From assembly GCA_965214705.1 (NCBI GenBank), contig OZ243972.1:2560001-2624000 (forward strand): 64,000 nucleotides of DNA. The letters are read 5' to 3'. The stretch is from Alphaproteobacteria bacterium (GTDB taxonomy: Bacteria; Pseudomonadota; Alphaproteobacteria; UBA828). The notes beneath the pieces are model-generated. The model saw nothing but the letters and a program-made list of their open reading frames with translations, had not been told where the DNA came from and ran no database searches. Below, piece by piece: positions 3,001 through 61,547 of this stretch (position 1 is the first letter of the stretch; each line of letters begins with the position of its first letter). The position numbers and the translations under genes were made by a program.

Positions 3001-4626
3001 CACCATGACCAGCCGACGCTCGCCCTCCTCCGCCGTGGCGATGGGGGCTTCCTCTTCCACGAAGGTGTCTAGCGCCCCGGTCAGATCGGGCAGACTGCGC
3101 GCCGCGAACGCGGTCCGTGCGGCGAAATGGGTGCGGCGGCGGCTGAGATTGCCGGCCAGCGCGTAGAGGTCCAGCGGCTGCTCGTCGAGCAGGTGGCGCA
3201 ACCGGCGCGCGCTCTCTGTCAGCGCCTTGGGCGTGCGTGCCGAGAGCGGGACCATGAAACCCGCTTGCGGCGCCAGCGGCATCGACCAGAGCCTGGGCAA
3301 TGCCGGCCGGTACTCGCGCACCACGCAGTGGCCGTTGGCGCCGCCGAAGCCGAACGAGTTGATCCCGACGGCCACGGGATGGTCGGGGAACGACTCGCAT
3401 TCCGTCTGCACCTGCATGGGGCAGGAATCGAAGTCGATCTCCGGATTGGGCACCTGGAAGTTGCTCGATGTCGGCGCGAAGGTGCGCCGCTGCATCATCA
3501 GAACGACCTTGAGCAGGGCGCAATGGAAGGCAGCAGCCTCCATGTGTCCCACGTTGCTCTTGACGCTTGACACGCGCAGCGGGACTTCGCGCTCGAAACC
3601 ACCGAAGGCCTCGGCGATGGCGTTGCCCTCAATGGGGTCGCCGACAGCGGTCCCGGTCGCGTGCGCCTCGATGTAGTCGAAGTCGAGAGGAGCGAGGCCG
3701 GCGCGGGCAGAGGCCTCGCGCATCAGCGCCACCTGGCCGTGGTGGGTGGGCGCGCTGATGAAACGGCCGGGCGCGAGGCCGGGAGTGCCGTCAGCCGTCC
3801 CTGCCGCATTGACCGCGGTCGCCTCGATCACGGCGTAGATCGGGTCCCCGTCCCGCTCGGCCGCCGCCAGGGGCTTGATGGCAAAGACGAACGAGCCTTC
3901 GGAGCGCATGTAGCCGTTGGCTTCGGCATCGAAGGAATGGCACTTGCCCTCCGGGCTGATGACCCCCATGAGGTTGAAGCCGCTGCTCATCCTGGCGCTG
4001 CCCAGATAGGTGACGGCGCCGACCAGCGCCTGGTCACAATCGCCGCACGCCAGCGCGTTCATCGCCGCGTGCAGGGCGCTCATGCCGGCGGAGCACGCCG
4101 TGCAATAGGTCGCGGACGATCCCATGAGGTTGAAGTGATAGGAGACCCGATTGGCCAGCATCGCGAGGCTGATGCCGGAGACGGAATTCTCCGTGACGCC
4201 ATGCTGCGGCCGCCAGTTGGACACGGCCGGAACCTGAGAGCCGATGAAGACCCCGGTGGGGCTGTTGCGCAAGGAGTGAAGATCCCAGCCGGCGTGCTCG
4301 ATGGCCTCCCACGCGCAATTCAGCAGCATCCTGACCTGCGGCTCGGTCTGCCGCAGCTCGTTGTGGGACATGCCGAAGAACGCGCGGTCGAAGAGCAACT
4401 CCTCTTCGTCTCGGATCAGCCCCTCGTAAGGGCTCGCGAGGCGCCCCGGGCCCGAGAATTCACCGATGGGCAGATGACCCTTGCCGTAGCGATCGGTGAT
4501 CGGCTCCTGGACGATCTCGCGCTCGGCGAGCAGGCGCCAGAAATCAGAGTCCGAGTGAATGCCGCCGGGCAACCGGTAGCCATACCCGGTGATTGCAACT
4601 CCGTCGCTGATGTCGTAAGCGCCCAT
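1..4626 (-). CDS. Reducing type I polyketide/fatty-acid synthase (KS-AT-DH-linker-KR structural part), truncated at window edge, >=1542 aa
   Basis: Manually translated from ATG at 4626; frame stays open to base 1. KS: YCTACSAG, EAHATGT, VKSNVGHMEAAA, NSFGFGGAN. AT: FAGQGTQW, GHSSG, AFHS. DH: EHRVHHAPIMPAAG, LLDGGLQ. Ends SALWGAVR. Absent from the ORF track because there is no stop in the window. Confidence 0.92.
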   Translation of the reverse strand, partial: MGAYDISDGVAITGYGYRLPGGIHSDSDFWRLLAEREIVQEPITDRYGKGHLPIGEFSGPGRLASPYEGLIRDEEELLFDRAFFGMSHNELRQTEPQVRMLLNCAWEAIEHAGWDLHSLRNSPTGVFIGSQVPAVSNWRPQHGVTENSVSGISLAMLANRVSYHFNLMGSSATYCTACSAGMSALHAAMNALACGDCDQALVGAVTYLGSARMSSGFNLMGVISPEGKCHSFDAEANGYMRSEGSFVFAIKPLAAAERDGDPIYAVIEATAVNAAGTADGTPGLAPGRFISAPTHHGQVALMREASARAGLAPLDFDYIEAHATGTAVGDPIEGNAIAEAFGGFEREVPLRVSSVKSNVGHMEAAAFHCALLKVVLMMQRRTFAPTSSNFQVPNPEIDFDSCPMQVQTECESFPDHPVAVGINSFGFGGANGHCVVREYRPALPRLWSMPLAPQAGFMVPLSARTPKALTESARRLRHLLDEQPLDLYALAGNLSRRRTHFAARTAFAARSLPDLTGALDTFVEEEAPIATAEEGERRLVMVFAGQGTQWAGCGRDLYEAHPVFRRAIDAIDEHWRTHASTSLREACFTAPQSALDEVQLAQPAIFMIQCALVELFKTWGVYPDCVVGHSSGEVAAAYACGALSLVDATRLVYHRATLQQRVAGSGRMLAIGLDRPGVEDLLDGLDIPFRLDGDRPIQVEIACENAPANTVICGRGDDLQPVIEELDRRSLQNRLIPGNIAFHSRAMDAINDDAFDALSFLNDLHFDADVPFISSVTGAETARLDSAYWWSNIRHPVRFAAAMETVKRDHRPDVVLELAPHSALQPIVAQCVEDAVSPPVSIPTLMRDTDTCLGFHEALGNLFKTGVSLDFAAQYPRPDPIVHLLPGHPRDEQKIVDDRLDDEFFLKQSDYAHGPLVGHRIASDHLLFEARLSEAAFPWLAEHRVHHAPIMPAAGYIELILQALGGVPVHFDVLEFLQPCPIPRTPVRLQTALYPVPNSDGEFTFQISTLPYEVDPKSELHCSGRVRLISARPELDAPETLSDLNTSGYEPLQYAADDEIYERFEVVLGETFQYGPHFRNIRKLRRERETGRLLLDVGVDEALWAGAREEGYVSFPPLLDGGLQSFLYDLMLGADRFAIPLRAENVTFLGAPTVPRLVCQLTYPGGKRYEVDDKGQYNVPNGEWVSGRLNFYDEATGALSLHVEKYISFISYPRRVDLPHSKHRIAWQPKFVADGPAIADRLPEGEIEPSALLAALERADDTGAAMRACHALEFAGSREPEQTVLQTCVDHLSREETQSEFWLVADDEEGARTCFDAFHAQDAALRFDCLDPAERQASALDTGLLRSGAAEVLFLHHDEDAFAPEDWRLWREVAVAGGLALVSHADGAIIEPGAGWTALRTGRRATLLQAPPKRTDDRSETPLPAPRWVMGAPDSLAGAWATLLDDPAVYPIPFDGLSSGDIFEVETWPQATDVQAIDVFCDWDPEDPTGERAVSQFVALIQSLVPYRMDQASCQCRITVATRKAVFEAEDARGSALWGAVR

Positions 4627-36940: not shown

Positions 36941-37016
<76 letters not shown>

Positions 37017-37179: not shown

Positions 37180-37255
37180 TCCCCGGTAGCTCAGTTGGTA
37201 GAGCAAGCGGCTGTTAACCGCTGGGTCGCTGGTTCGAGTCCGGCCCGGGGAGCCA
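37180..37255 (+). tRNA. tRNA-Asn(GTT)
   Basis: TCCCCGGTAGCTCAGTTGGTAGAGCAAGCGGCTGTTAACCGC...GTTCGAGTCC...GGGGAGCCA. Confidence 0.97.
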
Positions 37256-52403: not shown

Positions 52404-53120
52404 GAATTCGACCTCCCTGTGTCATCGCTCAGCATTCAGTCGGAATGCCTGGAGTACTGTCTTCCGATGTATAGCGGTTGCCCCAGCCAAGCCCGCTAGA
52501 CCGAGTTTGCTGGACTACGCCCCGTCATGCGACGCGGCAACGTTTCTGCAAGTCCCCTTGTCCATCACCTTGTTGTTCGGCACGTCGGTTGCGCGTCGAT
52601 CGCGCGATAAGCTATTGAAGTGGCTCGATAATTAGGGGTCACAATTGCACGCCGAGCAACAGACTGGGCGTCCAGCGCCGGCAAAATCATGCCGAATGGA
52701 TCGCGGCCTTCACCGGATGCTCAGAGTGCCAGGCTAACTGGTGGAAGGGTAGCGGGTGAAAGTCCCGCGAAACGAAAGGAGTAGCCAACCACGTTTCTCC
52801 GCGAGCCGTGCATCGTCGGCCGTGAGGCTGGGGGTGAAGCGTCGGTAGCGGTGCATGCGGGCAGGGACAGTGAACGCCGAAAACGAGATGGTCCGAAGTG
52901 CCGAGACGGTTGAGCACGTCGAAGGCAACATCTCCCGCACCGTAATATGGCGAGGTGTGAGGGAGCTTCGCGGCGTCGGGGACCCCATGCACGCATGTAA
53001 GCCCACCACCGGGACCTGGGAGGTCTTCACTCTGCCCCGATGGTCGTATCGGGGCCGCGAAGGGAAGGAGGTATCCGAAGCCTGAGATGAACGGAGTGAA
53101 GAAGTCGGACGGGGCCATAG

Positions 53121-54322
53121 GGAAGGTCTGATCAAGTCGAGTGTGCCATGATTTTCGTAGGAGTCGCAGATTGGATGATCGGGTCATGGCACAGGCGAGC
53201 TTTTCGGAACTGGAGCACGACTTGAAGAAGCGCCGGACGCGGCGCGAGCTGTTCCTGGAGAAGATGGACAAGCTGGTTCCCTGGGAGCGGCTGGAACGGC
53301 GGATCGAGCCGTTCTATCCGAAGGCGGGGCGCGGTCGGCGCCCGTACCCGCTTGCGGTGATGCTGCGCGTTCACTGCGTGCAGCTGTTCTACAACCTGAG
53401 CGATCCGGGGATGGAGGACCTGCTCTACGAGGTGGAGTCGGTGCGGCGTTTCGTGGGGCTGCGGCTGGCGGAGGCGTTGCCTGACGAGACCACCATCCTG
53501 AACTTCCGGCATCTTCTGGAGAAGCACGGCCTGGGCGAGGGTCTGTTCGAGGAGATCAATGCGCACCTGGCGTCGCGCGGCCATTGGCTGCGCACGGGGA
53601 CGATCGTTGACGCGAGCATCATCGAGGCGCCGTCGTCGACGAAGAACCGGCGCCGCGCACGGGACCCTGAGATGCGTCAGACGAGGAAGGGCAAGCAGTG
53701 GTATTTCGGGATGAAGGCGCACATCGGGGTGGACGCCGGGTCGGGTCTGGCACACAGCGTGGTGACGACGGCGGCCAACGCAAGCGACGTGACGCAGGCG
53801 GGAGCGCTGCTGCATGGCGCTGAGACGACGGCGTGGGGCGACGCGGGCTACCAGGGGGTGGAGAAGCGTCCCGAGCACCGGGATGGCGGTGTCGAGTGGC
53901 GTGTGGCGATGAAGCCGGGGCGGCGCCGGCTGCTGGCCGGGGGTGGCGCCGAAGCGGCGGCCGAGACGCGCAAGGCGTCGGTGCGGGCGAAGGTGGAGCA
54001 TCCGTTCCTGTACGTGAAGCGGCACTTCGGCTACGCCAAGGTGCGCTACCGGGGCGTGGCGAAGAACAGGCAGCGCATCGCGTTGCTGCTGGGGTTCTCG
54101 AACCTGCTGATCGCCGGCCGCTACGCGACGCAATGACAGGGGAGCAGTCCGCCCGCCGCCGGCGGGACGACGGGGAATGCGGCGGATCGACGCGGATATC
54201 GCCCGTTCGCTCCGTATCCCGCGACAAAAGCAGCCCCCGGCCTGCCGGCAATATCGTCGAGCTTCAAATCCAAGCCCCCTCTCCCCCTCGAAGCCGCCAA
54301 GATGGGGTTGTTCAGACTTTCC
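53121..54322 (+). mobile_element. IS5-family element, 1202 bp
   Basis: TIRs GGAAGGTCTGATC / GTTCAGACTTTCC; 4-bp TSD ATAG at 53117-53120 and 54323-54326. Confidence 0.93.
53186..54136 (+). CDS. IS5 transposase
   Basis: RTRRELFL, LSDPGMED, PDETTILNFRHLL, VDAS, FGMKAHIGVD, GDAGY, RAKVEHPF. Confidence 0.95.
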   Translation: MAQASFSELEHDLKKRRTRRELFLEKMDKLVPWERLERRIEPFYPKAGRGRRPYPLAVMLRVHCVQLFYNLSDPGMEDLLYEVESVRRFVGLRLAEALPDETTILNFRHLLEKHGLGEGLFEEINAHLASRGHWLRTGTIVDASIIEAPSSTKNRRRARDPEMRQTRKGKQWYFGMKAHIGVDAGSGLAHSVVTTAANASDVTQAGALLHGAETTAWGDAGYQGVEKRPEHRDGGVEWRVAMKPGRRRLLAGGGAEAAAETRKASVRAKVEHPFLYVKRHFGYAKVRYRGVAKNRQRIALLLGFSNLLIAGRYATQ

Positions 54323-54327
54323 ATAGT

Positions 54328-56351
54328 GTGTGCTGGGCAGCGCCCAGATCAGGTGGGTTCAAGTCCCACTGGCGCTCGGGTAAGGGGCGCCATATCCAAA
54401 AGTGGGGGTAATTCCTCACTGGCCGGAGTGAGCCGATAAGCGAAACTCTAAACGGGCACGAAGCCGGAAACGGCGGAGACAGCCAAGGGAGGAGCTAAGT
54501 TGGTCCACTGTCGAAAGACAACCGGAAGGCAGGGTGTCCACCGCGAGGTGGAATCTGAAGGGCTTGCGGAGAAGTACCGGGCCGTAATCGAGGGGGCCAC
54601 CCCATGATGAATCGGTCGGCCAAAGACGGGGCAAGGTCGAGCCGGCACTATGGCGGCGAAGGCGTTCTTACCCACCCGTCGCACCAAGGTGTTTGCGAGC
54701 GGCACGGTACGGAAGATCTGGACGTGACCCCAGGAGGGCTCGCCGCGTTCCCGGGTGGCACCGGGATAACGGACCCTATAAGCCGAAAGGCGAAATGGGA
54801 AAGGATGCGCGGCGAGCAATCGGACAACCGAATAGTACCTGAAGCCCGGCGAAAGCCGGGTGACCGCGCGAGCGGCGGCCGTGTGGGCCGGGGAAGTCGG
54901 TTGGCAGAGGTGGTCGGCGAGAGACAGCGATGAGTGAGTAAGGACCATGACGCGGACAAGTTCCTTGAGCGAAAGACCCGGACATCATGGCCCGAGGAGA
55001 CTCATCGACTGGATCAACCCGGCGGGTGACAGGAAGGTCCACTCACTGGTGGACAAGGTGTACAAGCGGAAGAACCTTGAGGTGGCCTGGGAAAAGGTGA
55101 AGCGCAACCGGGGTGCCGGTGGCGTGGACGGAGAGGATTTAGCGGCGTTCGAGGCATCGCTGGATGCAAATCTCGATCGCCTGCACCGGGAGTTGCGGGA
55201 CGGTGAGTATCACCCGCAGCCGGTTCTCCAATGCCTGATCCCCAAGGCGGGCCAGCCGGGGAAGTTCCGCCCGCTCGGCATCCCGACAATCTACGACCGG
55301 GTGTGCCAGCAGGCGCTGCTGAACCGGCTGGAACCGATCTTCGAGCCGGTGTTCGACGATGCCAACTACGGGTACCGGCAAGGAAGGTCTGCCCATGGAG
55401 CGTTACGCAAGATATGGAGGGAACTGGACGAGGGCAACGAGTGGGTTCTCGATGCGGATTTGAAAGACTTTTTCGGGTCCGTGGACCACGAAAAGCTCCT
55501 CGAACTCGTCAACCAGCGAGTCTCGGATGGCCGGGTATTAGGTCTGCTCAGGCAGATGCTCACGGCCGGGGTGGTGGCCGACGGTAAGAGGCTGCCGACC
55601 GAACAGGGCACTCCGCAGGGCGGCATCGTTTCACCGCTGCTCAGCAATATCTTGCTGACCCCGTTCGATTGGGAAATGCGTCGTCGCGGCTATCGACTAA
55701 CGCGATACGCCGATGATTGGCTGATCACGTGCCGCACACGCGGGGAAGCCCGCGCAGCACTGGAGACGGCCAGGCGGATTCTGGCAAAGCTGGGTGTGTC
55801 CCTCAACGCCGGGAAGACCCGCATTGTCCATGTCAGGCACGGGTTTGAGTTCCTCGGCTACAAGATCAAGCAGGGCGAGCGGCCTCTCCGGCTGTCGTCC
55901 TCCAAGATCAAGAGCGGGGTTCGCGGGGGAGCGCGCTACGCGGTTCCGCGTGAGAAATCCATCCGGCACTTCAAGGACCAGATTCGCCAGCGTACCCGGC
56001 GCAAGGCTCCTGTCAGCACGCAGGAGCTGATTGACGAGATCAACCCGATCATTCGGGGATGGGGCCAATACTATTGCAAGGCCCACGTCCGCGGGCTCTT
56101 CCACCAGCTTGACGGCTGGATCGTGCGGCGGCTCTGGTCGCATCGTCGCAAGCGCTGGCGCAACGCTGGCTGGAAACAGTTGCCGGAGCGCAAGCTGATC
56201 GACGAATACGGGCTTGTTCGCCTGATCTCACTGGTTCCGTCCTTGAACCTTCGTTGAGACACCTTTGTGAAAGCGGCTTACGGGAAAACCGTACGGGCCG
56301 TTTGAGCGGCGGACGGAGGCTAGCCTCGCGGGGCGCCTCCTCCGACCCGAC
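54328..56351 (+). mobile_element. Inner group II intron, apparently complete (2024 nt)
   Basis: 5' GTGTG; domain V AAGCGGCTTACGGGAAAACCGTACGGGCCGTTT; domain VI ending CCGACCCGAC; removal restores CCATAGT/ACCGATGAAG. Confidence 0.92.
54947..56257 (+). CDS. ltrA: Group II intron reverse transcriptase/maturase, no endonuclease domain
   Basis: GAGGVDG, RPLGIP...DRVCQ, DADLKDFF, GTPQGGIVSPLLSN, RYADD, FLGY, NPIIRGWGQYY. Confidence 0.95.
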   Translation: MTRTSSLSERPGHHGPRRLIDWINPAGDRKVHSLVDKVYKRKNLEVAWEKVKRNRGAGGVDGEDLAAFEASLDANLDRLHRELRDGEYHPQPVLQCLIPKAGQPGKFRPLGIPTIYDRVCQQALLNRLEPIFEPVFDDANYGYRQGRSAHGALRKIWRELDEGNEWVLDADLKDFFGSVDHEKLLELVNQRVSDGRVLGLLRQMLTAGVVADGKRLPTEQGTPQGGIVSPLLSNILLTPFDWEMRRRGYRLTRYADDWLITCRTRGEARAALETARRILAKLGVSLNAGKTRIVHVRHGFEFLGYKIKQGERPLRLSSSKIKSGVRGGARYAVPREKSIRHFKDQIRQRTRRKAPVSTQELIDEINPIIRGWGQYYCKAHVRGLFHQLDGWIVRRLWSHRRKRWRNAGWKQLPERKLIDEYGLVRLISLVPSLNLR

Positions 56352-56850
56352 ACCGATGAAGCGGGCGAACAAGGGGGCGCGAGCCCCTGCGGAACCTGTG
56401 GAGGGAAGGGCCTCGACCAAGGGGAATCCGCGAAGCGAAAGCACGCGCCGGACGCAGGGCCGGGAAAGCGTGACCCAGGCCGCCGAGCGGATACGTCAAG
56501 CTGCAACGAGGAAGCCGCAGGAGAAACTGACGGCGCTCCTGCACCATGTCACACCGGACGCGCTGCGCTGGGCCTTCCACGCGTTGAAGCGGGACGCCGC
56601 GGCGGGGATGGACGGCATGACATGGGCTGAGTACGCGAACGGTGTTGTTTCCCGCTTTAGCCGGATAGCGGGTCGGCGATTTTTCTCACATTGATCGGTT
56701 CAGGGATTTCCCCGGATGGTGGGGGAAAGCGGGAGATCGGCGAGCATCGCGGCTTCGGCGGTTGGCGGTGCCGGGGCGGGACCGTAGTCTCGGGCTGACG
56801 AGGAACAAGAAAGAGGCCCGCGCGGGCTGACTCCCGCCGGGCCATGGCCG

Positions 56851-57486
56851 GTGCAGCTTCGCTACGAAACGGGGCTTACCGGCGAGGAATACGTTAGGGC
56901 CGAGGCGTGGCGCGACGCAAGGCTTGAGCGCTGCCCGAATCACCCGCACGGCGGATGTTCCGTGGGAAGCCACGGCACCTACGGGCGGAAGACCCCGCCC
57001 GGCGCGAGGGTTCCTCGCTGGTATTGCCGCGAGAGCCATACGACGATCAGCCTTCTGGCCGACTGCCTGGCGGCGCGGCTGCCGGGCACGCTCGACGATC
57101 TGGAAGCGGTTGTCGTCGCGGCCGAGGGCGCGAAGAGCCAGGAGGAGGCGGCGAACGAGGTGCGCCGCCCCGAGGACGATGACGCCATCGAGCTTCCCGG
57201 CGCGCTGCGCTGGCTGCGCCGGCGGGTGGATCTCGTCCACGATGTCCTTTCCCGCGTTATCGGCCTGATCCCCGACAAGCTCGCGGGCTGCGCCGCCACC
57301 ATGAGCGCGGTGCGCGACAAGCTCAAAAGCAACCGCGCATTGATGGCGCTGCGCGGCCTGGTCGCCGGGCAGCTGCAGGCGCTGCCCGCGCCGTTGGGCT
57401 TCCAACCCCACGGAACCGGCGCGAGGAGTCGCAAGCCGGGCCTCCAACACTCGATGGGGCCTGATCCGCCCCCGCCAGGCGCCTAG
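56851..57486 (+). CDS. Transposon accessory protein with putative Zn ribbon
   Basis: CPNH...C...HGTY.R...RWYC...TISLL. Confidence 0.65.
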   Translation: MQLRYETGLTGEEYVRAEAWRDARLERCPNHPHGGCSVGSHGTYGRKTPPGARVPRWYCRESHTTISLLADCLAARLPGTLDDLEAVVVAAEGAKSQEEAANEVRRPEDDDAIELPGALRWLRRRVDLVHDVLSRVIGLIPDKLAGCAATMSAVRDKLKSNRALMALRGLVAGQLQALPAPLGFQPHGTGARSRKPGLQHSMGPDPPPPGA

Positions 57487-57530
57487 CGTCATGGTCCCGG
57501 GCCCGAGGGGCCGCGAACGAGGACCGTGAC

Positions 57531-58850
57531 ATGAAGGAATCGGATGACGACCTCCGCCAGGCGATCGCGCTCTTCCGATACGGCGTGATCGCCGATCTGG
57601 TGCATCTGCCGCTGGGCACGAAGGGCGTCGGCGACAGGCTTCGCGAGAAGGCCAGCCAGCCCTATGCCATCCCCGGAACCGACCGGACCCGGGTTGCCGC
57701 CGACACCATGCGGGAGTGGATCAGGCACTACCGCGATGGCGGCTTCGAGGCGCTCTACCCCAAGCCGCGCACCGACCGGGGCAAGCCCCGGCGGCTGCCG
57801 CCCGAGGTCGCCGAGCGCCTGGTCGCGCTGAAGGCCGACAACCCGGCCTGGCCGGTGCGCGCGATCATCCGCGCGGCCGCCGAGGAGGGCATCGATCACC
57901 CGCTCGCGCCCTCGACCGTGCACCGGCTGCTGAGCCGCGAGGGGCTGTTCGACAGGAAGCCGCCGGACGGCGCCGACCGCCGCCGCTTCGCCTTCCGCGA
58001 GGCCGGCGAGCTGTGGATGAGCGACGTCATGCACGGGCCCAAGGTCCGCTTCGGCCGGAGCCGGCGCAAGACCTACCTCATCGCATTCATCGACGACGCC
58101 ACCCGGGTCGTGCCCTTCGCCGCCTTCGCCACGGCCGAGAACGTCCAGGCCTTCCTGCCCGTGTTCAAGAATGCGCTGATCCGCCGCGGGCTGCCGCAGC
58201 GCCTTTATGTCGACAACGGCGCCGCCTACCGCTCCCGCCATCTCGCCCTGATCTGCGCAAGACTGGGCGTCGTGCTGGTGCATGCGAGGCCGTATCAGCC
58301 AGCCGGAAAGGGCAAGATCGAACGCTGGTTCAGAACGCTTCGCGCCGGCTGGCTCGCCCATCTCGATGCGCCGGTCCTGGACAGCCTCCAGACGCTCAAC
58401 CGCAGCCTCTGGGCGTGGATCGAGGGCGAGTATCACGACACCCCGCATCGCGGCCTCGAGGGACGCACGCCGCTGGAGCAGTGGGCGTTGGCCTCGGCCG
58501 CGGTCCGCTACCCCGACGCCACGCTCGACCTCGACGACATCTTCCTCTTCGAGGCCAGGCGGCTGGTCCACAAGGACCGCACCGTCAGCCTCAACGGTCG
58601 CGTCTACGAGGTCGACGCCATCCTGGTCGGGGAAAGGGTCGTGCTGCGCTACGACCCGGAGGCACCGCCCGGCCGGCCGCTCGACGTGGTCTGCGACGGA
58701 AAGCCCGCCGGCCAGGCAACCCGCCTCGACGCCTATGCCAACACCGCGGTGAAGCGCGGCCACTACTCCAAGAAGATCGAGCCCGACGACCCGGCGCCCG
58801 AGCCGCCGCCCTCGCCGCTCAAGATGCGCAAGTTCAAGGAGGACGACTGA
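57531..58850 (+). CDS. DDE transposase (HTH + rve core + Mu-like C terminus)
   Basis: LWMSDVMHG, FIDDATR, YVDNG, GKGKIERWF. Confidence 0.92.
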   Translation: MKESDDDLRQAIALFRYGVIADLVHLPLGTKGVGDRLREKASQPYAIPGTDRTRVAADTMREWIRHYRDGGFEALYPKPRTDRGKPRRLPPEVAERLVALKADNPAWPVRAIIRAAAEEGIDHPLAPSTVHRLLSREGLFDRKPPDGADRRRFAFREAGELWMSDVMHGPKVRFGRSRRKTYLIAFIDDATRVVPFAAFATAENVQAFLPVFKNALIRRGLPQRLYVDNGAAYRSRHLALICARLGVVLVHARPYQPAGKGKIERWFRTLRAGWLAHLDAPVLDSLQTLNRSLWAWIEGEYHDTPHRGLEGRTPLEQWALASAAVRYPDATLDLDDIFLFEARRLVHKDRTVSLNGRVYEVDAILVGERVVLRYDPEAPPGRPLDVVCDGKPAGQATRLDAYANTAVKRGHYSKKIEPDDPAPEPPPSPLKMRKFKEDD

Positions 58851-59650
58851 TGTACCAGCGCCACTTCGCCCTGACCGGCATGCCCTTCGAGACCCCGGCA
58901 CAGACCGACGAGCTGTTCGAATCCTCGGCCCGGCGCGAGGCCGAGGCCAGGCTCGGCCACCTCATCGAGCTCAAGGGCATCGGCCTGCTCACCGGCGAGG
59001 TCGGCGCCGGCAAGACCACCGTCTGCCGCCACCTCACCGACCAGCTCCACCCGGGGCTGTATCGCGTCCATTACGTCTCGCTCACCACCGGCAACGTGCT
59101 CGACACCTACAAGGCCATCGGATGGGAGCTCGGGCTGACCGTCGAGCGATCCCGCTCCTCGGCCCATCACGCGATCAGGACCGAGATCTCCCGCCTCGCC
59201 AAGGAAGCCAGGCAGCTCCCCGTCCTCGTCGTCGACGAGGCCCACCATCTGCGCAACGACGTGTTGGAGGATCTCCGCCTGCTGACCAACTTCGCCATGG
59301 ACTCCGAGAACCGCATGTGCCTCATCCTGGTCGGCCTCACTGAGCTCAGGCGGCGGCTGTCCATGGCGGTGCATGAGTCCCTCAGCCAGCGCCTCGTCGT
59401 GCGGCACCACCTCACCGGCCTCGAACGCGACGAGGTCGACGCCTATCTGACCCACCGCCTCCGGCTCGCCGGATGCGAGCTGCCGCTGTTCGAGGAGGCC
59501 GCCGTCGAGGCCCTGTTCCAGGGCACCCGCGGCCTGCCGCGCCAGATCAACCGCATCGCCCATTACGCGCTGTCGGCCGCCGCCCTCGACAAGGCAAAGA
59601 CCGTCAACGCCAACCACATCCAGACCGCCCTCGACGAGCTTCAGCCATGA
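58850..59650 (+). CDS. ExeA/TniB-like AAA+ ATPase (transposition helper)
   Basis: GEVGAGKT, VVDEAH, LVG, GLPRQIN; TGATG overlap with the transposase. Confidence 0.88.
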   Translation: MYQRHFALTGMPFETPAQTDELFESSARREAEARLGHLIELKGIGLLTGEVGAGKTTVCRHLTDQLHPGLYRVHYVSLTTGNVLDTYKAIGWELGLTVERSRSSAHHAIRTEISRLAKEARQLPVLVVDEAHHLRNDVLEDLRLLTNFAMDSENRMCLILVGLTELRRRLSMAVHESLSQRLVVRHHLTGLERDEVDAYLTHRLRLAGCELPLFEEAAVEALFQGTRGLPRQINRIAHYALSAAALDKAKTVNANHIQTALDELQP

Positions 59651-60714
59651 ACAGCGTCGCCACCGAGGGCATGGCGATGACCGGCTTCCCGACGCGGGCG
59701 CCGATCGAGCTGGAGGACCGGCCGCGCCAGCAGCAGTGGCTCATCGACGGGCTCTGGGGGCGCCAGGCCGTCGGCATCGTCGGCGGCGAGCCGAAGTGCG
59801 GCAAGTCCTTCCTCGCGCTCGACATCGCCGTCGCGGTCGCCGCCGGCGTCCCATGCCTGCGCCGCTTCGCCGCCGACCGGCCGGGCCCGGTCCTGCTGTT
59901 CGCCGCCGAGGACGCCGGGCACATCGTGCGTGCCCGCCTCCAGGGTATCGCGAGCGCCGCCGGCGCCCGCTTCGACGCCCTCGACATCGCGGTCATCGAC
60001 GTGCCCGCGCTGCGCCTCGATCATCGCGCGGACCGTCAGCGCCTGGTGCAAACGGTGGAACGCGTCCGGCCCCGCCTCGTGGTCCTCGACCCCCTGGTCC
60101 GCCTGCACGGCATCGACGAGAACACCGTCGCCGAGGTCGCCCCCATCCTCGGCTTCCTGCGCGACGTCCAGCGCCGCTTCGAGACCGCCGTGCTGCTGGT
60201 CCACCACGCACGAAAGAGCGGCGCCGCCAGGCCGGGCCAGGCCCTGCGCGGAAGCAGCGAGCTGCACGCCTGGGGCGACTCCAATCTGTACCTGCGCCGG
60301 CGAGACAGGCAGATCCTCATGACCGTCGAGCATCGCGCCGCCCCCGGCCTCAACGACATCGAAATCGAGCTCGCCGACGACGGCAAGGGGCCCGCGCTGC
60401 GCCTCCGCCAGGTCGAGACCGGCGATGCCGCGCCGCGGCCCGAAACCCCTGAACGGCGCATCCTCCAGGCCCTCGCCGAAGCCGACGCGCCGCTCTCCCA
60501 GCGCCAGATCCGGGAGCGCGCCGCAACCCGGCACAAGACCGTGGGCGCCATCCTGCGAAAGCTCGTCCGTGAGGGACGCATCCGGCACGACGCCGAGGGA
60601 CATTACAGCCTCGTCACAGGCGAAACCGAGAACGCCGCGCCGGACGACGCCGCCAATGGCAGCCGCCATCCGGACGCCTCGCGGTTCCCGCCTCCCGGTT
60701 CCGCCCATCCCTAG
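59647..60714 (+). CDS. AAA_25 / RepA-like helicase with C-terminal winged helix
   Basis: WLIDGLW, GEPKCGKS, AAED, VVLDPL, LVHH.RK, LRGSS; ATGA overlap with the ATPase. Confidence 0.78.
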   Translation: MNSVATEGMAMTGFPTRAPIELEDRPRQQQWLIDGLWGRQAVGIVGGEPKCGKSFLALDIAVAVAAGVPCLRRFAADRPGPVLLFAAEDAGHIVRARLQGIASAAGARFDALDIAVIDVPALRLDHRADRQRLVQTVERVRPRLVVLDPLVRLHGIDENTVAEVAPILGFLRDVQRRFETAVLLVHHARKSGAARPGQALRGSSELHAWGDSNLYLRRRDRQILMTVEHRAAPGLNDIEIELADDGKGPALRLRQVETGDAAPRPETPERRILQALAEADAPLSQRQIRERAATRHKTVGAILRKLVREGRIRHDAEGHYSLVTGETENAAPDDAANGSRHPDASRFPPPGSAHP

Positions 60715-61515
60715 GAGTTCGAGCGGGAACCGCCCGCCGGAACCGCCCCCCAGGCGCCTCTCGGGCTCAAAAAACGACAATGCGTCGAGCGATCGGCCCG
60801 TGGCCGAAAGCTCCGCTTACGGCCATGGATGCACTTCGTCGGATGGACGGCGGCGGGTCACCCGAAGGGCCGTAGCGAAGCGGAGGAGCCGCGCAGCGGC
60901 TTGACGCGCCGACGGCCGTCCGACACCCCGGCACCCTGTCCCCCTTCCGGCAATGACCGATCAGTCCGGGAAATACGCGCGCCCGTCACCCGAAATAACC
61001 CGGGAAATCCGTCGTCAATCAATCCGGGAAACAACAACGGGCTGGAAGAGCGGCTGCTCGACCTGCACCGGCGCGTGCAGTCCGGGGCGTATCGAGCGCC
61101 GCCGGTCCGGCGGGTAGAGATACCCAAGCCGGACGGCGGGACACGACCGCTCGGCGTTGCCGCGCTGGAGGACAAGATCGTCCAGAAGGCGGTGACGGAG
61201 ATCATCCTGACGCCGATCTACGAGCCGGTCTTCCTCGGCTTCAGCTACGGGTTCCGACCGGGGCGCGGGGCGCATGACGCGCTCGACGCGCTCGCTGTCG
61301 CCATCAATCGGCGGAAGGTCAACTGGGTGGTCGACTGCGACATCCAAAGGTTCTTCGATACCGTTTCGCGGGACTGGCTGGTCCGGTTCCTCAAGCACCG
61401 GATCGGGGACCGGCGGGTGATCAGGCTGATCGTCAAGTGGCTGAAAGCCGGCGTCATGGTCGATGGCCGGTGGCAGGACACCTCGCAGGGCACGCCACAA
61501 GGGGCGATCGTTTCG

Positions 61516-61547
61516 CCGCTGTTATCGGAACGTTCCGATAACAGCGG
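61516..61547. repeat. Perfect 32-bp palindrome at the RT/RIT junction
   Basis: CCGCTGTTATCG-GAACGTTC-CGATAACAGCGG. Confidence 0.95.

Follow-up and report, generated by a model that had tools for sequence, protein, structure and literature searches.

The 64,000-nt stretch of DNA analysed here (the window; positions 2,560,001 to 2,624,000 of the forward strand of contig OZ243972.1, assembly GCA_965214705.1, from an alphaproteobacterium of the UBA828 lineage) contains one group II intron nested inside another. The inner intron (54328-56351) is very likely a recently active element without an endonuclease (En) that is aimed by its exon-binding site 1 (EBS1) at the internal loop of domain III in other group II introns, as judged from its copies in this genome and from relatives in many bacterial groups. 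Coordinates are those of the window, and features lie on the forward (+) strand unless stated otherwise. This genome (7.9 Mb, 3 contigs) is labelled G000, a sister species G004, and individual loci, with coordinates of their own, carry L-numbers.

Guide loop and target of the inner intron

The inner intron is 2024 nt long and runs from GTGTG at 54328 to ...CCGACCCGAC at 56351 (GTGTG...GAC), as read directly from the DNA, in agreement with the GUGYG 5' and AY 3' end rule of group II introns. Essentially identical copies occur throughout this genome, where 21 5' and 20 3' junctions, all with the same ends at about 100% identity, represent 14 distinct sites. Unoccupied copies of the host introns are also present (two of host family b, two of family c and five of family h), and they read ...CCATAGTAGC... 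or ...CTCGTAGTAGT... without interruption, which confirms the ends of the intron and shows that insertion makes no target duplication. The initial annotation, made from the letters of the window, had given the element as 54321-56362. Its 5' flank and start are correct, but the end lies 11 nt earlier, at 56351, because all 20 genomic 3' junctions agree and the empty sites read uninterrupted.

The open reading frame (ORF) of the intron (54947-56257), which sits in domain IV, encodes a reverse transcriptase (RT)/maturase of 436 aa. A Pfam search found RVT_1 (3.1e-40) and GIIM (2.2e-19) and no other domain, the endonuclease domain being missing, and the closest solved structure is that of the En-less GsI-IIC RT (6ar1, E 9.9e-64). 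A fold of the last 112 nt (56240-56351; -47.2 kcal/mol, z -2.1) assigns domain V to a hairpin at about 56271-56303 that begins with AGC, and domain VI to about 56308-56347, where the A at 56345 is bulged and lies 7 nt from the 3' end. The Rfam model of domains V-VI, RF00029, did not report the window copy at its gathering score or at E<=1, and it matches the equivalent region of nine relatives with 40.8-47.5 bits. Similarly, domain I of the window copy scores 21.4 bits against RF02001, below the gathering score of 32, which the relatives L063, L066 and L078 exceed with 33-34.2 bits. The intron's own domain III (54825-54903) has a basal stem formed by 54825-54830 and 54898-54903 and an internal loop with GAATAGT|A at 54830-54837. 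Its single-sequence fold agrees with the consensus fold of 28 lineage members (RNAalifold), in which the basal stem covaries (column 6/88: AU 17, GC 8, CG 3; column 7/87: AU 15, GC 13). Taken together, the inner element appears with high confidence to be a complete En-less group II intron, with a IIB-like ribozyme and an En-minus RT, and its identical copies point to recent activity.

The predicted guide is a hairpin in domain I (54641-54657, GCCGGCACTATGGCGGC) with a 4-bp stem and a 9-nt loop, GCACUAUGG. In the layout GCCG-GCACTATGG-CGGC, the EBS1 heptamer ACTATGG (ACUAUGG in RNA) occupies 54647-54653. It is the reverse complement of the 5' flank CCATAGT (54321-54327), the present-day intron-binding site 1 (IBS1), and pairs with it at all seven positions, as the initial annotation had recognized. 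The annotated insertion point, CCATAGT|ACC, was likewise right, with the 3' flank ACC at 56352-56354, except that the CC now belongs to the end of an insertion sequence (IS), followed by the ATAG of a duplicated host sequence and the T of the host; the earlier motif was the same. The expected number of occurrences of a given heptamer in the 480 nt of domain I is about 0.03 (474/4^7). Across the 14 distinct sites of this genome, position -7 is a pyrimidine in 12 of 13, -6 is C in 12 of 14, -5 is a purine and the following four bases are TAGT in all 14, +1 is A in 13 of 13, and +3 is C in 11 of 13. This logo fits what a loop ACUAUGG would read if G.U wobble pairs are allowed.

The hairpin stem also covaries (column 22/32: GC 11, UA 10, CG 6, UG 1 in 28 sequences), and the hairpin aligns to the variable-loop hairpin of RF02001. 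Loop and flank change together in the relatives, which were collected as 63 related loci with RTs 56-93% identical; the scan took one genome per species, three of the 63 loci repeat the G004 sites, and several share assemblies. In L052 the loop ACUUUGG faces the flank CCAAAGU, and L041 of the same assembly, in a near-identical host, has ACUAUGG and CCAUAGU. L067 and L068 combine ACCAUGG with CCAUGGU, and L048 of the same assembly again combines ACUAUGG with CCAUAGU. Further pairs are ACCAUGC/GCAUGGU in L056, AUUAUGA/..GUAAU in L042 and L043, AGUAUGG/CCGUAUU in L040, and a wholly different CCACCGU/ACGGUGG in L060. Full pairing between EBS1 and the flank at -6 to -1 is found at 22 of 27 lineage loci. 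The loop is EBS1 by this comparative evidence, its main support being the covariation of loop and flank in the relatives together with the 14 distinct sites.

The U at intron position 365 (54692) is a candidate EBS3 that may read the +1 A of the target. Two relatives are informative on this point: the base is C in L056, whose target has a +1 G, and A in L060, where +1 is T. No EBS2-IBS2 pairing in a constant register was found when all 5-7-mers of intron positions 1-520 were compared with -30 to -7 of 13 sites; the intron may lack EBS2, or this stretch may be read by the protein. The best EBS2 candidate, GGCUU at position 234, fitted 9 of the 13 sites, in five registers and within a stem, and was rejected.

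What the loop reads in the host is defined by the Rfam family RF01998, whose consensus GcC[AUAGUA]gccgcc...ggcggc[GAAG]GgC describes a 3-bp basal stem, a 6-nt loop strand, a hairpin and the opposite loop strand. Insertion occurs at AUAGU|A within this type of domain III loop, and in minimum-energy folds of four unoccupied host copies the motif falls in the same internal loop, in concurrence with the consensus fold of the inner intron's own domain III. By this alignment and folding, the target spans the last one or two bases of the basal stem and continues for five bases into the 5' strand of the domain III internal loop. A constrained domain III loop fits a passage of PMC4476101 that cites Robart et al. 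Conservation of this loop in several intron classes opens many host families to invasion by a single element.

Within this genome, other group II introns, belonging to at least nine host families, harbour 17 of the 21 copies (10 of the 14 distinct sites), and each of these copies is in sense orientation. The host evidence consists of Rfam matches to D1D4-6 or D1D4-4 directly 5' of the copy in 10 of 19 scanned loci, in addition to the window, and of a same-strand group II RT downstream, 27-44% identical to the inner RT and beginning 129-290 nt away (about 2.3 kb at one locus). Identical inner copies in diverged host families, with empty members of these families remaining, indicate that the insertions are recent and independent. 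Group II introns are unusually numerous in this genome: the inner RT gives 57 tblastn high-scoring segment pairs, 24 from this intron and 33 from other families (26 below 40% identity and 7 at 40-95%).

The sister species carries the same loop in an intron that is 91% identical, and the sequence at each of its two sites resembles the host domain III motif; one of the two, L044, is further supported by a D1D4-6 match upstream and a host RT downstream. The record titles of the related loci name Alphaproteobacteria, Gammaproteobacteria, Acidobacteriota, Planctomycetota, Chloroflexi, Gemmatimonadota, Nitrospirales, Desulfobacterota-type groups and others. A 5' junction could be defined at 35 related loci, and 34 of these have testable flanks. 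An Rfam D1D4 match upstream (-6, -4, -3/-1 or -2) or a host RT downstream was found in 30 of the 34, and 29 of these 30 intron-located copies occupy a domain III-type site.

The remaining copy, in L060 (RT 69% identical; sites 1915-1953 and 3903-3945), lies at the domain V/VI junction of its host. It follows ...CACGUACGGUGG, the 3' strand of a domain V-like hairpin, and domain VI-like sequence comes directly after it; the host is of D1D4-3 type, and its own domain III (403-483, loop AUAGGA) is unoccupied. In two other relatives, L077 (about 3259-3452) and L078 (about 3277-3522), the RT match ends at aa 257-261 and an Rfam D1D4-2 match follows directly, so these members of the lineage were apparently themselves invaded, inside their own ORF, by an intron of another type.

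In the mechanism that we propose, the ribonucleoprotein would reverse-splice into the DNA sense strand of the host domain III, guided by EBS1 and, tentatively, by a reader of the +1 A. The En-less RT would then be primed at the replication fork, by analogy with other En-minus introns, for which section 8 of PMC4424553 gives this as the established route. Sense-orientation insertion means that the inner intron is transcribed together with its host, and its splicing, through the same EBS1-IBS1 pairing, would restore the host domain III loop, given the position of the insertion.

RNA data bear on the ends of the intron. Only 7-16% of the sampled words occurred in six RNA libraries, four of which were examined further. 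One contig each in X15 and X16, from one study, and in X17, from another, joins position 1500 to 3525 of L003, the locus of another copy, and skips exactly 2024 nt with the ends GT..AC. This joint represents either the empty or the ligated form; it confirms the ends and is ambiguous on splicing, because unoccupied DNA copies exist and RNA libraries can hold DNA. Four metatranscriptome libraries contain contigs, 90-99% alike, that cover the ribozyme half of the intron in L003 (1506-2610) far more than its ORF half, a coverage to be read with the proviso that contig depth cannot rank expression and that DNA carry-over is possible.

Possible self-avoidance and competing explanations

The inner intron carries a version of the target motif in its own domain III (CCGAATAGTACC, 54828-54839), in which GAATAGT (GAAUAGU, 54830-54836) pairs with the EBS1 loop at five of seven positions. 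A host-type site reads ...GGCCATAGT|ACCGATG... and an own-type site ...CCGAATAGT|ACCTGAA.... Among the 28 lineage members, the -7 G of the own domain III is paired with C in every case, and -6 is A in most, compared with C in the hosts. A mismatch between the own motif and the own EBS1 at -6 to -1 is present in 27 of the 28; the full six pairs form only in L047, whose EBS1 is ACUAUUG and whose actual flank is the mismatched partner. Four members have C at -6, each with another mismatch: at loop base -2 in L054, at loop base -4 in L061 and L064, and through a changed EBS1 in L056. The own loop departs from AUAGU in 8 of the 28. No self-nested copy at the own motif was seen among the 21 copies of this genome or among 36 aligned 5' halves, and of the ten inner copies interrupted by other insertions, none is interrupted at this motif (intron position 509). 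Whether the G-A at -7/-6 of the own domain III lowers insertion of sibling introns into it is, in our judgement, evenly balanced.

The strongest alternative, to which we give a little less than an even chance, is that the homing is real but the mismatch in the own motif is neutral and inherited, positions -7 and -6 lying at the closing end of the basal stem, where they would be free to vary. The invariant G-C pair at -7 adjoins basal-stem pairs that covary freely, and the A at -6, common to most members, could be ancestral and thus a matter of simple inheritance. Moreover, L058 and L042 are inserted at sites with A at -6, that is, despite the same kind of mismatch, and the own motif of L047 is fully self-pairing. 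Set against neutrality, the hosts do keep C at -6 (at 12 of 14 distinct sites, and as an upper-case C in the Rfam consensus), full self-pairing is confined to one member of 28, the four members with C at -6 are all mismatched elsewhere, and the own motif deviates in eight members from an otherwise conserved AUAGU, with self-nested copies not seen.

Several further observations weigh against the proposal that the lineage homes into introns. Four of the 14 distinct sites in this genome lie outside introns. The first is an antisense copy (G000 C3:2019164-2021187; L002 1501-3524) within a Hydantoinase_B/oxoprolinase gene, flanked by positions 1-370 and 375-519 of the Hydantoinase_B profile, with GAAGTCGTAGC upstream as in host introns; this insertion is ectopic and should inactivate the gene. 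The second and third sites are homologous to each other and lie beside NikA-like and S24-peptidase ORFs, and no context was assigned to the fourth. In the relatives, 4 of 34 (L050, L054, L056 and L081) are without evidence of a host intron, as are 6-7 of the 17 for which only a 3' junction is available, the other 10-11 having such evidence. The window copy itself sits in a dead nest, with an IS 1 nt upstream and a host RT that is split and truncated.

The preference for intron sites also calls for more than EBS1 provides. CRTAGTA occurs unoccupied 579 times in this genome (base composition predicts 670), and a host RT lies within 900 nt downstream of only 9 of these sites, in an RT-based count that misses ORF-less hosts. 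Occupancy is about 17 of 26 at intron sites versus 4 of about 574 elsewhere; therefore, some determinant past the 7-8-nt match must be read. No EBS2/IBS2 pairing was found that would account for this roughly 60-fold preference, and we infer a further determinant beyond EBS1 and the +1 base. A candidate would be the conserved upstream GAAGUC(A/G)G of the RF01998 consensus (GAAGUCAG, host J2/3 region); a similar GAAGTCGTAG is found upstream of the hydantoinase site.

A preference far above what a 7-8-nt match explains could also be expected if nested copies arose mainly from reverse splicing into RNA followed by copying back, or from duplication of composites, with independent DNA retrohoming playing a minor part. 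We consider this improbable. Host intron RNA would indeed present the domain III loop single-stranded, and the flanks are identical over at least 70 nt on each side for five family-a, two family-b and three family-c sites, so that these copies (five in family a) may not be independent events, which tells against our reading as well. Nevertheless, the same inner sequence is found in ten distinct host contexts and at four non-intron DNA sites, occupied and unoccupied copies of the same host families coexist, and a host ribozyme carrying 2 kb in its domain III is unlikely to be mobile; the antisense insertion in a protein gene indicates that DNA targets are used. The view that the loop-flank complementarity is a coincidence and the inner element an ordinary intron that chanced into another can be dismissed almost entirely, for although one window can show one junction only, the same motif recurs at 14 distinct sites here, at two in the sister species and at dozens in other phyla, with compensatory loop-flank changes in the relatives.

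Homing by an EBS1-guided, En-less intron into a structurally constrained ribozyme motif of other introns, as the initial annotation had supposed, is supported in this genome and across phyla, with the internal loop of domain III as the motif. The outcome that would have refuted it according to that annotation, homologs scattered over various non-intron sites, does not match the observations, and its five-of-seven pairing of the own motif is correct. Its further idea of a lineage that hunts introns while avoiding itself stands in the first part; avoidance is consistent with the data, with about the same chance of being right as wrong, and shared ancestry explains them as well.

Surroundings of the nest in the window

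The 5' part of the outer intron (52724-53120) comprises domains I-II and domain III as far as its internal loop and ends in ...GGGGCCATAG. Rfam RF02005 (group-II-D1D4-6) matches it at 52759-52985 with 159.6 bits. Its 5' end, GAGTGCC at 52724, is approximate and was placed by alignment to host families a-c of the same genome. An IS5-family IS (53121-54322) comes next; it occupies the same loop, 1 nt before the 5' splice site of the inner intron. Its target duplication, ATAG, is found at 53117-53120 and 54323-54326, 13 of 16 positions agree between its terminal inverted repeats (GGAAGGTCTGATCAAG and, as reverse complement, GGAAAGTCTGAACAAC), and its transposase ORF (53141-54136) contains DDE_Tnp_1 (1.8e-27) and DUF772. 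Before the IS arrived, the outer intron read GGGGCCATAG followed by T, i.e., the same target motif, and the terminal CC of the IS recreates CCATAGT. At a second inner copy (G000 C1:1694283), the 5' host flank is likewise replaced by foreign sequence, ending ...CCTATAGT.

The host intron resumes at 56352-56658 with the remaining, 3' portion of domain III, followed by domain IV and the N-terminal region of its RT. The 3' flank, ACCGATGAAGCGGGCGAACAAGG..., matches host families a-c, and the RT part is 70% identical to the family-b host RT over aa 31-150 (tblastn). Similarity to the host RT ends at about 56658, where an inserted element of about 4.4 kb with approximate boundaries (56659-61035) splits the RT. 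It contains ORFs at 56851-57486 (no Pfam match), 57531-58850 (rve, HTH_32 and Mu-transpos_C) and 59473-60714 (AAA_25). The host RT continues at 61036-61527, corresponding to aa 144-307 of the family-b RT (80% identical, tblastn; RVT_1 9.9e-20), and is lost thereafter. With an IS at the border of the splice site and its RT split and lost, the host of the window copy is dead. Two divergent tRNA genes at 36944-37016 (-) and 37180-37252 (+) (RF00005, 74.8 and 66.9 bits) are unrelated to the nest.

Known nested introns and significance

Group II introns that home into other group II introns are already known from Thermosynechococcus and Methanosarcina. Dai and Zimmerly reportedly found in 2003 that Methanosarcina introns home into related intron ORFs in one archaeon. 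RmInt1 of Sinorhizobium meliloti homes into the transposase gene of an IS; like the inner intron, it combines an endonuclease-less RT and dependence on the replication fork with a target within another mobile element, although its target is a transposase gene and that of the inner intron a ribozyme motif of introns. RmInt1 is described as an En-minus intron (PMC4496777, PMC8914252).

The closest precedent is the twintrons of Thermosynechococcus elongatus, in which F3 TeI3 introns lie in F1 TeI4 introns (Mohr, Ghanem and Lambowitz 2010, PMC2882425). As here, identical inner copies occur in diverged outer copies, which was read as a route to new harmless sites, and the insertion of introns into introns was discussed as a proliferation strategy (PMC2882425). 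In contrast to the domain III internal loop targeted here, the T. elongatus site falls within domain IV, where it is enclosed by the first and second ATG of the host ORF. Inner introns there have no ORF and use the protein of the host, whereas the inner intron here encodes its own En-less RT, and the hosts there are close relatives in one genome, compared with at least four Rfam D1D4 types and a lineage in many phyla here. In Methanosarcina acetivorans, nested arrays formed by repeated homing into intron sequences (review PMC4424553, 'Twintrons'); the passages of that account do not contain the domain III loop target, the tracking by EBS1 or the wide host range seen here. The Trichodesmium twintron (Pfreundt and Hess 2015, PMC4649490) is also a bacterial intron within an intron, with sequential splicing, but it is a single locus in a host gene, and the available passages of PMC4649490 do not describe lineage-wide targeting of domain III.

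The full-text literature searched, with subscription papers, the intron database and supplements outside its scope, gave in its available passages no bacterial lineage with domain III of other introns as its target. A target in the domain III loop, a host range of several D1D4 types, the spread across phyla and the tracking by EBS1 within single assemblies were not found there. Annotation pipelines discard nested introns (PMC4028801, PMC8919778), and intron-hunting lineages are for this reason probably under-counted.

A more far-reaching interpretation, which we regard as possible though rather unlikely, is that these elements are obligate 'introns of introns' in many phyla. Their guide loop would be matched to the domain III consensus, among the most conserved unpaired parts of the group II ribozyme, which would open many intron classes to parasitism, compensatory EBS1 changes would track escape variants of the hosts, as the pairs L041/L052 and L048/L067 within single assemblies might suggest, one member would have been re-aimed at the domain V/VI junction, and the own domain III would be kept out of reach. 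As the host ribozyme would stay broken until splicing removed the inserted intron, such a lineage would act as a brake on the spread of its host introns and be a hyperparasite in an arms race over 7 nt.

Spliceosomal introns presumably descend from group II introns, which also serve as programmable tools for gene targeting. The findings touch on how group II introns find safe sites and how their numbers are kept in check, and the lineage offers a natural system, easy to test, for the target rules of En-less introns, combining a guide of 7 nt with defined targets and a natural 'immune' variant. With a conserved ribozyme loop as its target, the lineage would show that a structurally constrained RNA motif can be an almost universal homing site in DNA, that the covariation of loop and flank directly reveals target tracking, and that an element can protect itself by changing a single stem-closing position.

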